64,000 bases of DNA, from positions 17,360,001-17,424,000 of the forward strand of contig OZ024766.1 in the NCBI GenBank assembly GCA_964016885.1. The letters run 5' to 3'. Below the pieces are notes generated by a model, which ran no database searches, was not told the origin of the DNA, and worked only from the letters and a program-made list of their open reading frames with translations. The translations under genes were made by a program, and so were the position numbers. Shown piece by piece: positions 2,141-11,200 of this stretch (the stretch's first letter is position 1; each line of letters begins with the position of its first letter). The stretch is from Eledone cirrhosa. Taxonomy: Eukaryota.

Positions 2141-2263
2141 CAATGCAAGTCCCTCCATAGAATATAAAGCCAGTCTGGCAGTCACAACCATAACTCCCTG
2201 GTAGGTTGAAACAGATACCATTCGGTGTACAAACATTGGAATCCTGTTTACATTCATCAACAT
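2141..2263 (-). CDS. cbEGF exon 5 (neutral to acidic type)
   Basis: ctccAG|123 bp|gtaagt. [41 protein letters not shown]. Confidence 0.9.
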
Positions 2264-5200
2264 CTGGAGTTTGACAGAGAGAAAAGACGTTGGTTGATGA
2301 GATTGTTTTTTTTTTTTTCTTTCTTTGTTCCCTTTCCTATATATTTGTTTCTGTTTTCGTTCTTTTTATTTATTTGTGTGTTTACTGATTCACTTTTTTA
2401 AAACATATTATATATTTTATTAACCATTTAGCATTTACATTACTCTATATTTACTATTGTATTGTCACAGTAAAGGCTTTACTTCACATAATACCTCACA
2501 TAACATTTACATTACTCTATATATACTATTGTATTGTCACAGTAAAGGCTTTACCTCACATAATATCTCACATAACATTTATATTACTCTATATATACTA
2601 TTGTATTGTCACAGTAAAGGCTTTACTTCACATAATATCTCACATAACCTTTACATTACTCTATATATACTATTGTATTGTCACAGTAAAGGCTTTACCT
2701 CACATAATATCTCACATAACCTTTACATTACTCTATATATACTATTGTATCGTCACAGTAAAGGCTTTACCTTACATAACATTTACATTACTCTATATAT
2801 ACTATTGTATTGTCACAGTAATGGCTTTACCTCACATAATATCTCACATAACATTTACATTATTCTATATATACTATTGTATTGTCACAGTAAAGGCTTT
2901 ACCTTACATAATATTTACATTACTCTATATATACTATTGTATTGTCACAGTAAAGGCTTTACCTCACATAATATCTCACATAACATTTACATTATTCTAT
3001 ATATACTATTGTATTGTCACAGTAAAGGCTTTACCTTACATAACATTTACATTACTCTATATATACTATTGTATTGTCACAGTAAAGGCTTTACCTCACA
3101 TAATATCTCACATAACATTTATATTACTCTATATATACTATTGTATTGTCACAGTAAAGGCTTTACCTCACATAATATCTCACATAACATTTATATTACT
3201 CTATATATACTATTGTATTGTCACAGTAAAGGCTTTACCTCACATAATACCTCACATAACATTTACATTACTCTATATATACTATTGTATTGTCACAGTA
3301 AAGGCTTTACCTCACATAATATCTCACATAACATTTATATTACTCTATATATACTATTGTATTGTCACAGTAAAGGCTTTACCTCACATAATATCTCACA
3401 TAGCATTTACATTATTCTATATATACTATTAAAACCCACAAGCAGTTAATACATACATCTCTGTCTCTCTCCATATATATATATATATATAGGGACGAGT
3501 AGGACCCCGACGGCAGAGCTCAAGCCATTTCGACGGCTATTTCTGGACTGAATTAGTCCAGAATTAGTCGTTGAAATGGCTTGAGCTCTGCCGTCGGGGT
3601 CATACTTGTTCCTATTACCCATTCTACTACCTTAAGTATTGAGTACTTTGGTGCGTTATGGTCCATTTAGTTCCTTACCACATTTCCTTCGTTATATATA
3701 TATATGTATATATATACATACACACATACATACAGGATGTCCCCCTAAAATGGATACACTTTTTATGAGAATGCTGTTGAAGTGTGCATGCATTTTTGGG
3801 GGACATCCTTGCATATATACACATAAATGCATATATATATATATATATATATATATATGTTATCTTGTGAGTCAATTGTAGTTAGTAGCGGTGATAATGG
3901 TTAAGAAATATCCGCGATGTGGCGAGGATTACTGCTATAGGAAATTAGATACGTTCCAAAGAAATATCCGCGATGTGGCGAGGATTACTGCTATAGGAAA
4001 TTAGATACTGTAAAGTGGTCATGTAGGTGTCACAACAAACAGCACCCAGTCCACACTGTAAAGTGGTTGTGTAGGTGTCACAACAAAAGGTACTCAGTCC
4101 ACACTGTAAAGTGGTCATGTAGGTGTCACAACAAAAAGTACCCAGTCCACACTGTAGAGTGGTCATGTAGGGGTCACAACAAACAGCACCCAGTCCACAC
4201 TGTAAAGTGGTCATGTAGGTGTCACAACAAAAGGTACTCAGTCCACACTGTAAAGTGGTCATGTAGGTGTCACAACAAAAGGTACTCAGTCCACACTGTA
4301 AAGTGGTCATGTAGGTGTCACAACAAAAAGCACCCAGTCCACACTGTAAAGTGGTCATGTAGGTGTCACAACAAAAAGTACCCAGTCCACACTGTAAAGT
4401 TGTCATGTAGGTGTCACAACAAAAAGTACCCAGTCCACACTGTAAAGTGGTCATGTAGGTCTCACAACAAAGAGTACCCAGCCCACACTGTAAAGTGGTC
4501 ATGTAGGTGTCACAACAAAAAGTACCCAGTCCACACTATAAAGTGGTCATGTAGGTCTCACAACAAAGAGTACCCAGCCCACACTGTAAAGTGGTCATGT
4601 AGGTGTCACAACAAACAGCACCCAGTCCACACTGTAAAGTGGTTGTGTAGGTGTCACAACAAAAAGTACCCAGTCCACACTGTAAAGTGGTCATGTATGT
4701 GTCACAACAAATAGCACCCAGTCCACACTGTAAAGTGGTCATGTAGGTGTCACAACAAAAGGTACCCAGTCCACACTGTAAAGTGGTCATGTAGGTGTCA
4801 TAACAAAAAGTACCCAGTCCACTCTGTAAAGTGGTCATGTAGGTGTCACAACAAAAGGTACCCAGTCCACACTGTAAAGTGGTCATGTAGGTGTCATAAC
4901 AAAAAGTACCCAGTCCACACTGTAAAGTGGTTGTGTAGGTGTCACAACAAAAGGTGCCCAGTCCACACTGTAAAGTGGTCATGTAGGTGTCACACCAAAA
5001 AGTACCCAGTCCACTCTGTAAAGTGGTCAGGTAGGTGTCACAACAAAAAGTACCCAGTCCACTCTGTAAAGTGGTCATGTAGGTGTCACAACAAAAAGTA
5101 CCCAGTCCACACTGTAAAGTGGTCATGTAGGGTTCACAACAAAAAGTACCCAGTCCACTCTGTAAAGTGGTCATGTAGGTGTCACAACCAAAAGTACCCA

Positions 5201-8200: not shown

Positions 8201-11200
8201 GAGTTTGACAGACGGAAAAGAGTTTTATAATACTGTAAATTTTCATAACAATCTGTCCACCAGTAAAGACACTATAAACATTTAGTACAAAACAACACAT
8301 TAAATATTAAAGTCTTTACTGTAATACTGTAAATATTCACAACAATCTGTCTACCAGTAAAGATACTATAAACATTTAGTACAAAACAACACTATGACTA
8401 CATCACATTAAATATTAAAGTCTTTACTGTAATACTGTAAATATTCACAACAATCTGTCTACTAGTAAAGATACTATAAACATTTAGTACAAAACAACAC
8501 TATGACTACATCACATTAAATATTAAAGTCTTTACTGTAATACTGTAAATTTTCACAACAATCTGTCCACCAGTAAAGATACTATAAACATTTAGTACAA
8601 AACAACACTATGACTACATCACATTATGATGGTGACAATGATGACATTAGTGATGATAAGGTTACTTACCAACGCAAGTCTTTCCAACTGATCTAAAGCC
8701 AGTTTTGCAGTGACAATGATAACTCCCTCGTAGGTTGTGACAGGTACCATAGGGTTTACAAAGACGGGGCTTCTGTTTACATTCATCAATATCTGGAGTT
8801 TGACAGACGGAAAAGAGTTTTATAATACTGTAAATTTTCATAACAATCTGTCCACCAGTAAAGATACTATAAACATTTAGTACAAAACAACACTATGACT
8901 ACATCACATTAAATATTAAAGTCTTTACTGTAATACTGTAAATATTCACAACAATCTGTCTACCAGTAAAGATACTATAAACATTTAGTACAAAACAACA
9001 CTATGACTACATCACATTAAATATTAAAGTCTTTACTGTAATACTGTAAATATTCACAACAATCTGTCCACCAGTAAAGATACTATAAACATTTAGTACA
9101 AAACAACACTATGACTACACCACATTAAATATTAAAGTCTTTACTCTAATACTGTAAATATTCACAACAATCTGTCCACCAGTAAAGATACTATAAACAT
9201 TTAGTACAGAACAACACTATGACTACATCACATTAAATATTAAAGTCTTTACTGTAATACTGTAAATATTCACAACAATCTGTCCACCAGTAAAGATACT
9301 ATAAACATTTAGTACAAAAAAAACACTATGACTACATCACATTAAATATTAAAGTCTTTACTGTAATACTGTAAATATTAACAACAATCTGTCCACCAGT
9401 AAAGATACTATAAACATTTAGTACAAAACAACACTATGACTACATCACTTTAAATATTAAAGTCTTTACTGTAATACTGTAAATATTCACAACAATCTGT
9501 CTACCAGTAAAGATACTATAAACATTTAGTACAAAACAACACTATGACTACATCACATTAAATATTAAAATCTTTACTGTAATACTGTAAATATTCACAA
9601 CAATCTGTCTACCAGTAAAGATACTATAAACATTTAGTACAAAACAACACTATGACTACATCACTTTAAATATTAAAGTCTTTACTGTAATACTGTAAAT
9701 ATTCACAACAATCTGTCTACCAGTAAAGATACTATAAACATTTAGTACAAAACAACACTATGACTACATCACATTAAATATTAAAATCTTTACTGTAATA
9801 CTGTAAATATTCACAACAATCTGTCTACCAGTAAAGATACTATAAACATTTAGTACAAAACAACACTATGACTACATCACATTAAATATTAAATTCTTTA
9901 CTGTAATACAGTAAATATTCACAACAATCTGTCCACCAGTAAAGATACTATAAACATTTAGTACAAAACAACACTATGACTACATCACATTAAATATTAA
10001 AGCCTTTACTGTAATACTGTAAATATTCACAACAATCTGTCCACCAGTAAAGATACTATAAACATTTAGTACAAAACAACACTATGACTACATCACTTTA
10101 AATATTAAAGTCTTTACTGTAATACTGTAAATATTCACAACAATCTGTCCACCAGTAAAGATACTATAAACATTTAGTACAAAACAACACTATGACTACA
10201 TCACATTAAATATTAAAGTCTTTACTGTAATACTGTAAATATTCACAACAATCTGTCGACCAGTAAAGATACTATAAACATTTAGTACAAAACAACACTA
10301 TGACTACATCACATTATGATGGTGACAATGATGACATTAGTGATGATAAGGTTACTTACCAACGCAAGTCCTTCCATTGAATCTAAAGCCAGTTTTGCAG
10401 TGACAATGATAACTCCCTGGTAGGTTGTGACAGGTACCATAGGGTTTACAAAGACGGGGGTTCCGTTTACATTCATCAATATCTGGAGTTTGACAGAGAG
10501 AAAAGAGGTTGGTTGATGAAATTTTTATTTTTTTTATTTTTCCTCTAATTTTTTTCTTGCTTTGATCCCTTTCCTATATATTTGTTTCTGCTTTCGTTCT
10601 TTTTATTTATTTGTGTGTTTACTAATTCACTTTTTTTAAAACATATATATTTTATTAACCCTTTAATACTTACATTACTCTATATATACTATTGTATTTT
10701 CACAGTAAAGGCTTTACCTCACATAATATCTCACATAACATCTCGTATACGATTGACGTGTGTGAACAAGCTCGGCTACCGAGTCGGATTTACTTACTCA
10801 AAAGTGAGTTTTGATTAATTTTTTTATACTGTAATATACGTTAACCCCTTGCCTTGGTCGTCAAACTTTGAGTTTATTTATTTTCGCCCATTTTTGGGGC
10901 GAATTTTCCAGTTAAAAATTTATTACGGCAAACTAATAGAAATGGACGGAATTTTCACATCTCATCCTCACGAGAAAGCCACGCCCCCTAAGAAAGGTGA
11001 TACAGAGAAGCTAGAAGCACAAGGCTCTAAGTCTTCCCTCCTCACTTCTGCAAAAGAAACATGGAACACGGAATTTAAAGAAAAATTTGTAAAAATGGGT
11101 GAAAACCCAGAAAGTCACATAAACGCAGACAAAAACAACAATGACAATAACAGCAATAGTCACAACACCAACCAAGGAAAAAATAACGATAACACCAAAC

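Follow-up and report, generated by a model that had tools for sequence, protein, structure and literature searches.

The window analyzed here, 64,000 nucleotides of the Eledone cirrhosa genome (contig OZ024766.1, positions 17,360,001 to 17,424,000 of the forward strand), carries part of a gene for a predicted secreted protein in which single epidermal growth factor (EGF) modules are coded by tandem 123-bp exons. These exons are far more diverged than the introns between them, differing by 12.7% among 13 core copies, in contrast to 0.75 to 2.5% for the introns. An earlier note on this DNA had reported the pattern for a few exons; the observation is real and well supported, and is larger than first reported. 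The note had posed diversifying selection and intron homogenization as alternatives; each finds support, and the two mechanisms seem to act together. In the explanation that we consider probable, the introns are homogenized by unequal crossover and gene conversion, and selection favors differences between modules and weeds out conversions by which these would be lost.

Exons and introns of the EGF array

A search of the animal's own 3.0-Gb genome finds 17 copies of the exon, all on one contig, and the extent of the array was examined over 350 kb around the window (positions outside the window carry the prefix C27). Five copies lie inside the window on the minus strand, followed by E06 to E16, and E17 stands 73 kb beyond. 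Spacing is 0.6 to 1.7 kb among the first three exons and 2.7 to 7.2 kb afterwards.

10360..10482, minus: E01, calcium-binding-type EGF (cbEGF) exon, phase 1-1, basic C type, the first EGF exon past the Cys-rich N-terminal exons; PF07645 at 37.7 bits (cut-off 27)
8670..8792, minus: E02, EGF exon, C type; PF07645
8075..8197, minus: E03, EGF exon, C type, with Lys for the consensus Glu ahead of the first Cys; PF07645
5409..5531, minus: E04, EGF exon, acidic A type; no other part has cover from the RNA-like run X4, in which one exon is joined to another
2141..2263, minus: E05, EGF exon, A type; PF07645
C27:17358393 to 17320848: E06 to E16, continuation of the array left of the window
C27:17248209: E17, EGF exon

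All five window exons score 35 to 42 bits with PF07645 (calcium-binding EGF; curated cut-off 27). The six Cys and the AG/GT splice sites, which the earlier note had described as intact, are so in all 17 copies, and the D, N, G, and Y of the cbEGF pattern are likewise invariant, with a Glu-to-Lys replacement in one copy; the consensus that we take for this class has a D-x-D-E-C start, a C-x-N-x-x-G-x-Y-x-C core, and six Cys. By score and consensus the exons are thus of the calcium-binding type, with calcium binding itself a prediction. There is no stop or frameshift in any copy, and 15 of the 40 residues, namely the Cys and those of the cbEGF core, are the same throughout, showing that the fold is kept. 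The core set comprises 13 copies (78 pairs), whose types alternate along the array (A A B A B A B A B A B B A), and includes exact duplicates (E07 = E09 and E11 = E13). The core modules are acidic, in contrast to E01 to E03 and E17, which are basic.

Every core intron is pieced together from minisatellites (units of 48, 56, and 72 bp), a unique mid piece, and a short unique flank at each end; tandem repeat makes up 60% of the region. The mid piece contains a palindromic element for which "MITE-like" (resembling a miniature inverted-repeat transposable element) is our own label.

308..10316, strand not assigned: intronic minisatellites, the bulk of each unit; 48-bp (308-2099, 4007-5367, 7248-7920), 72-bp (2432-3430, 5701-6651), 56-bp, and 108-bp (8292-8626, 8823-10316)
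2264..2431, minus: acceptor-side unique intron flank, 5 of 170 columns variable in 13 copies; same flank at 5532-5700
2097..2140, minus: donor-side unique intron flank, 2 of 45 columns variable in 13 copies; same flank at 5365-5408
3431..3905, strand not assigned: mid-intron unique piece with the palindromic element (arms at about 3503-3531 and 3572-3600); 15 copies in the locus, 2.3 to 2.5% apart, also at about 6652 and 16309

The hand counts of the earlier note are reproduced. The exons at 2141 and 5409 differ at 11 nucleotides in 10 codons, giving nine amino acid changes and one purely synonymous codon, and the introns that begin at 2264 and 5532 differ in 3 of 190 columns (one gap and two substitutions), with no difference in the 44 bp on the donor side. 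The exons at 8075 and 8670 have four differences, all nonsynonymous (K/E, N/K, G/R, and I/V), and those at 8670 and 10360 have six changed codons (8 nucleotides), again all nonsynonymous. Across the 78 core pairs, the proportion of differing synonymous sites is 8 to 10% and that of nonsynonymous sites is 14 to 15%, whereas the adjacent flanks differ by 0.75% and the mid-introns by 2.3 to 2.5%. Variable columns number 37 of 123 in the exon and 45 of 588 in the intron (Fisher P 2e-10). Types A and B are 17.3% apart in their exons and 2.8% apart in their mid-introns; within type A the values are 8.2% and 3.2%.

The same pattern recurs outside the data of the earlier note, in two non-EGF exons, X and Y, which precede the EGF exons and have paralogs in a second cassette.

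17852..17904, minus: exon Y, 53 bp, phase 2-1, CCxGW motif; paralog Y' at C27:17250010-062
18993..19082, minus: exon X, 90 bp, phase 2-2, four Cys, basic, without a Pfam or library match; paralog X' (78 bp) at C27:17251538-615

X and X' differ at 9 of 78 sites and by a 12-bp indel (flanks, 2 of 210), and Y and Y' at 7 of 53 (flanks, 6 of 340), so that pooled differences number 16 of 131 exon sites and 8 of 550 flank sites; by hand count two to four of the 16 exon changes are synonymous. The signal exons of the locus, described below, differ chiefly past the signal peptide.

Several observations concern the modules themselves. Within E04 to E16 the motifs that we take to be for glycosylation vary: a Ser or Thr ahead of the third Cys is lost in 3 of the 17 copies, and a presumed N-glycan sequon occurs in 4 of the 17. 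Reading through into the intron from any EGF exon (2141-10482 and E06 to E17) gives two residues and then a stop, so intronic polyadenylation could yield truncated secreted forms of any length. The 48-bp minisatellite grows to 155 copies just past E16, the last core exon (C27:17313346-17320806).

Probable selection on the EGF modules

Our codon models cover 15 of the 17 exons, the two exact duplicates having been dropped. The earlier note had made its proposal of diversifying selection contingent on a ratio of nonsynonymous to synonymous rates (omega) above 1 for the full exon set, and under the one-ratio model M0 this holds with F1X4 codon frequencies (omega 2.36, P 0.0095) and fails to reach significance with F3X4 (omega 1.89, P 0.058). 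The site model M2a beats M1a (P 5e-4 and 9e-5), placing 62 to 65% of sites at an omega of 3.6 to 4.2 and the remainder near 0. Recombination has occurred within the exons, as 71 of 378 site pairs are incompatible and the incompatibility depends on distance (P 0.008), and we therefore used a tree-free count of minimal changes. Over the 17 exons there are at least 61 changes, of which at most 5 to 6 are synonymous and 23 to 26% would be expected to be (P 0.001 to 0.007). The deficit holds with an AT-biased mutation matrix taken from the introns of the locus, with all sites neutral (P 0.006 to 0.008), and in each of six nulls none of 350 simulations on the exon tree without recombination reaches it. 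The synonymous deficit is thus significant with all 17 exons, and together with the site-model tests it supports diversifying selection.

Probable homogenization of the introns

Near-fixed differences between types A and B fall at 10 exon sites, three of them synonymous (of about 30 synonymous sites), and at 1 of 595 intron sites (0 of 213 in the flanks and 1 of 382 in the mid-intron; Fisher P ~4e-4, computed with 601 rather than 595 intron sites). Three near-fixed synonymous sites set against a single intron site argue for intron homogenization besides positive selection. The boundary is sharp, with three near-fixed sites within the last five exon bases and none in the next 43 intron bases. 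Homogenization is also supported by copies of differing type: E05 differs from E06 by 14.6% and from E08 by 17% in the exon, behind mid-introns 1.1% apart. The synonymous sites also change more per site than the flanks (P 0.009 to 0.03). The intron of E01 is a mosaic, its flank lying 8 to 12 differences in 165 from the core (~6%) and carrying an insertion, with its mid-intron 2.2% away, so the flank is free to change.

It is likely that the long, near-identical, repeat-rich introns let units mispair, and that crossovers within them copy or delete whole in-phase exons while conversions level the introns. Conversion tracts that entered an exon would erase amino acid differences and would likely be removed by selection, and new replacement changes in the modules would be favored. 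With exons 15% apart, mismatch itself would slow exchange.

Several points nonetheless weigh against this joint explanation. With regard to selection, M0 omega does not significantly exceed 1 with F3X4, and the deficit is borderline when the five window exons are taken alone (3 to 5 synonymous of 39 changes, P 0.03 to 0.07 under strict neutrality) or the 13 core exons alone (P 0.02 to 0.06 under the strictest null); site-model tests can be inflated by recombination, and the locus was chosen because it looked nonsynonymous. With regard to conversion, synonymous sites do not change significantly more per site than the mid-intron (4 to 5 of 30 versus 39 of 375, P 0.35 to 0.54), so that the case rests on the three deep synonymous sites, all of which lie within 2 nucleotides of a nonsynonymous change and may each belong to one multi-base mutation. 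Exon and intron distances also correlate (Mantel r 0.33, P 0.002; r 0.21, P 0.046), and part of the history is therefore shared block duplication. Homology searches of the exons found neither an ortholog nor a ligand. Conversion of the introns is, on comparison of the copies, likely rather than proven, a second species being what proof would take.

These points lend themselves to an account without conversion, in which the array is young (about 2% by its introns) and all of the exon divergence was made by positive selection of great strength, the few synonymous changes having been swept along in multi-base mutations. The comparison of synonymous sites with the mid-intron, the position of the three deep sites abutting nonsynonymous ones, and the correlated distances all agree with it, as does the same exon excess between two cassettes about 127 kb apart. 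We consider it unlikely, since the branch between types A and B, with 1 of 595 intron and 10 of 123 exon sites changed, would require an omega of about 10 or more, since both the mosaic structure of the E01 intron and the incompatibility of intron sites with one another suggest exchange, and since the changes are not significantly clustered overall (P 0.12).

A second account keeps conversion and makes the selection internal, with neighboring disulfide-rich domains having to differ in order to fold or pack in a structural fiber or coat, with no external partner. Similar tandem domains misfold, 10 of 12 neighboring core pairs alternate in type, and neighbors differ by 19.1 nucleotides on average, next-neighbors by 9.6 (hand-worked from the pairwise matrix). 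A protein of 29 EGF repeats that tethers octopus eggs is described in PMC10336842. We note, however, that duplication of two-exon blocks alone yields alternation (E07 = E09 and E11 = E13), that the nonrepeated X and Y exons and the linker in the signal exons also diverge by amino acid changes, and that a need to differ, once satisfied, would not lead one to expect omega to stay above 1 within types. This account appears improbable.

Relaxed constraint, under which the exons drift neutrally save for their Cys and the flanks are conserved by splicing function, is very improbable and already largely refuted. The flanks do vary less than the mid-intron (0.033 versus 0.104 changes per site), and a recognizable donor flank is kept in another organism, where one contig of the public run X5 matches the donor flank and exon end with 11 differences in 76 bp (flank and exon not separable) and continues as a diverged EGF. 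Against it stand the rejected neutral nulls, the 15 invariant residues, the lack of any stop or frameshift, and the drift of the E01 flank. RNA editing with cDNA-mediated conversion, which the prevalence of A/G among exon changes (11 of 35 biallelic columns) might suggest, was dropped because transversions make up 21 of the 35.

Public-run contigs and splicing

Contigs from four public runs, of 20 listed, were aligned to 5366-5700 (E04 and its flanks). Run X1 covers the E04 exon and introns; all 22 variants listed are exonic and match paralogs in the assembly, and none falls in the flanks, while of 59 variants that the assembly shows against E04, the read-derived listing lacks 37. An intron contig of 186 bp with two differences has a depth of 122, as against 12 to 36 for the exon contigs, which is what the collapse of many identical introns would produce. 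The earlier note had named assembly or polishing error as a possible source of the differences; despite the repeat content of the region and the possibility that X1 is the sample behind the assembly, the read-contig variants and depths leave next to no probability that the introns were made identical or the exon differences invented.

Run X4 covers the E04 exon only, with the same 22 variants, and contains a joint of exon start to exon end, as from spliced tandem exons. It is from the same study as X1, is without an RNA record, and gives no population data; the run looks spliced, weakly so, with one joint of array exon to array exon. Among the runs listed, no RNA holder is given for this stretch, which counts neither way. 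X4 contigs with E01/E17-type letters (5486-5533) have a depth far above that of the core type, but contig depth cannot rank gene parts and we made no use of this. Run X6 has no cover on 5366-5700.

Gene model and neighboring features

The gene models rest on splice signals and phases rather than on transcripts.

33412..33533, minus: S2, signal-peptide exon, 122 coding bp, phase-2 donor; signal peptide judged by eye from the hydrophobic N terminus
53220..53341, minus: S1, signal-peptide exon whose frame fits X; perhaps an alternative first exon, perhaps a partial duplicate
34310..34620, minus: putative promoter, a conserved block ahead of S2 containing a TATA-like word
55790..56100, minus: promoter-like block ahead of S1, matching the S2 block but for 2 differences in 303
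10742..16293, plus: LINE-like insertion in the intron ahead of E01, with a 98.4% identical copy at C27:17202-17208 kb

A signal exon, X, Y, and the EGF exons splice in frame into a predicted open model of 744 codons, in which phases 2 (signal), 2-2 (X), and 2-1 (Y) join the phase 1-1 EGF exons. The paralogous cassette S4-X'-Y'-E17 reads on through two older EGF exons to a stop, and in the 242-residue protein predicted from it no membrane segment is seen. The genome holds four signal exons (one inverted), two copies of X, and one of each tail exon, with the tail at C27:17236268. A separate last exon for the long cassette was not found between E16 and S4, where each of the 17 acceptors listed lies within a repeat and one short candidate, near C27:17308025, failed the filter. 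Of the 48 residues of the head region, 12 are basic, 8 are Cys, and none is acidic. A Pfam scan for further exons took in 38 of 130 candidate frames, and among these nothing other than the known EGF exon reached a cut-off.

It is conceivable, if somewhat doubtful, that this is a variable-cassette recognition gene, in which the promoters and signal exons S1, S2, and S4 feed a long (16 EGF) or short (1 EGF) cassette onto a shared single-copy tail of two EGFs, and identical minisatellite introns continually shuffle, copy, and delete selected modules between haplotypes to give a germline repertoire of secreted binders. The suggestion draws support from the single-copy tail exons, the failure to find a separate long-cassette last exon, and the fit of all phases.

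The inverted fourth signal-exon copy lies with a promoter-like block at C27:17301990-17302110 on the plus strand; it is one codon shorter, with frame and donor intact, and belongs to an inverted duplicate of C27:17261.6-17264.1 kb. Purine-rich 22- to 25-bp tandem repeats lie between the promoter-like block and the ATG at 33566-34295 (0.7 kb) and 53374-55780 (2.4 kb), and from their very unequal lengths the 5' leader may vary in length. The insertion at 10742..16293 is presumably a long interspersed nuclear element (LINE), judged from features of its open reading frames (ORFs). Upstream, a flanking gene has an OGFr-like exon at C27:17449044-17449122 (Pfam E 0.005, below cut-off) and a likely last exon at C27:17425693-17425903. 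Several long, mutually similar, intron-poor ORFs (261 to 589 amino acids) lie on the minus strand at C27:17487-17494 kb, and none of the three frames scanned there exceeds a Pfam cut-off. The downstream flanking gene (C27:17184-17190 kb) is one that we take to be AlkB-homolog-like.

Relation to known systems and possible function

Homology searches to name the gene returned only generic EGF proteins, and the signal exon had no homology match. The best Protein Data Bank match is between E01 (10361-10480) and the third EGF of adhesion GPCR E5 (43 bits); we treat this as single-domain likeness, by chance or convergence, as no seven-transmembrane exon is seen. Exon X returned nothing at a useful score in the ESM Atlas (best 0.85, a lead only). 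We also compared the locus with the layout that we take EMI-domain proteins of the EGFL7/MEGF6 type to have; exon X by itself, as opposed to spliced X and Y, has no Pfam match at E 10 and no match in the 50% library.

The closest precedents come from separate systems. Primate L/M opsin genes (PMC3213168) have exons more diverged than introns, with synonymous sites also above introns, and this is explained by intron conversion and selection against exon conversion. The EGF array shares the excess of exon over intron divergence, but consists of 17 exons in one locus rather than two whole genes, and its omega exceeds 1, whereas nonsynonymous divergence in the opsins is not above synonymous. The opsin trait of synonymous divergence above introns is seen here for the A/B sites and in comparison with the flanks (P 0.009 to 0.03), and not in comparison with the mid-intron (P 0.35 to 0.54). 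Snake venom phospholipase A2 (PLA2) genes, as PMC7285919 describes them, have introns, untranslated regions, and a signal-peptide region more conserved than the mature-protein exons, with nonsynonymous rates (KA) at or above synonymous rates (KS). Here too KA exceeds KS in the diverging mature part, and the signal part hardly differs between copies, and the introns are alike; venom PLA2 is, however, a multigene toxin family, whereas here the units are internal exons.

Other tandem-repeat systems offer partial likenesses. Abalone VERL, with repeats 3 to 22 homogenized in coding sequence (PMC2704960), and Dscam exon arrays, which are far older, without conversion, and spliced mutually exclusively (PMC3236188), are both recognition proteins and, like the EGF array, places where homogenization and divergence compete; in VERL it is coding sequence that is homogenized and here probably the introns, and the Dscam rule of one exon per transcript does not apply if the one weak joint in run X4 is accepted. 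Insect Nimrod B and Eater proteins have a signal peptide, a CCxG-aromatic motif, and then EGF-like repeats, with secreted forms (PMC4073527); the likeness to Nimrod B is one of layout, as the motif here is CCxGW rather than CCxGY, and the array repeats are cbEGF and depart from the NIM repeat consensus as given there. Octovafibrin is likewise a secreted invertebrate protein of tandem EGF repeats, reported with C-type lectin ends, Cys at 5/10/16/25/27/36, and no calcium binding (PMC10336842). Identity with it was rejected, since the array has Cys at 5/12/18/27/29/40 and matches PF07645, and no lectin exon was found.

Our guess is that the gene codes for a secreted binder, with a strongly basic head of eight Cys and a variable EGF stalk, engaged in an arms race. 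The basic head and the charge pattern fit a secreted protein that binds polyanionic surfaces, those of microbes among them, and microbe or parasite surfaces are tentatively our first guess for the target. Reproductive partners are a possible target as well; a structural or folding constraint is a rather doubtful cause, and a salivary or venom role is unlikely.

Significance

A literature search that covered few subscription journals returned no account of the locus, or of this combination inside an internal EGF exon array. Earlier work on major histocompatibility complex class I introns, RHD/RHCE, and tenascin-X forms part of the wider background. Intron homogenization and accelerated exons are each known separately, from opsin introns and venom exons, and their combination inside one gene's exon array seems not to have been described. 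Two processes that are usually studied apart, opsin-like intron homogenization and a venom-like omega above 1, would thus meet in one compact locus. The array also flags an unnamed predicted secreted invertebrate protein, one that homology searches did not name, as a candidate arms-race gene of immunity or reproduction. Because its 17 internal replicates bring their own neutral yardsticks, the locus lets one ask how sharply selection halts a conversion tract.

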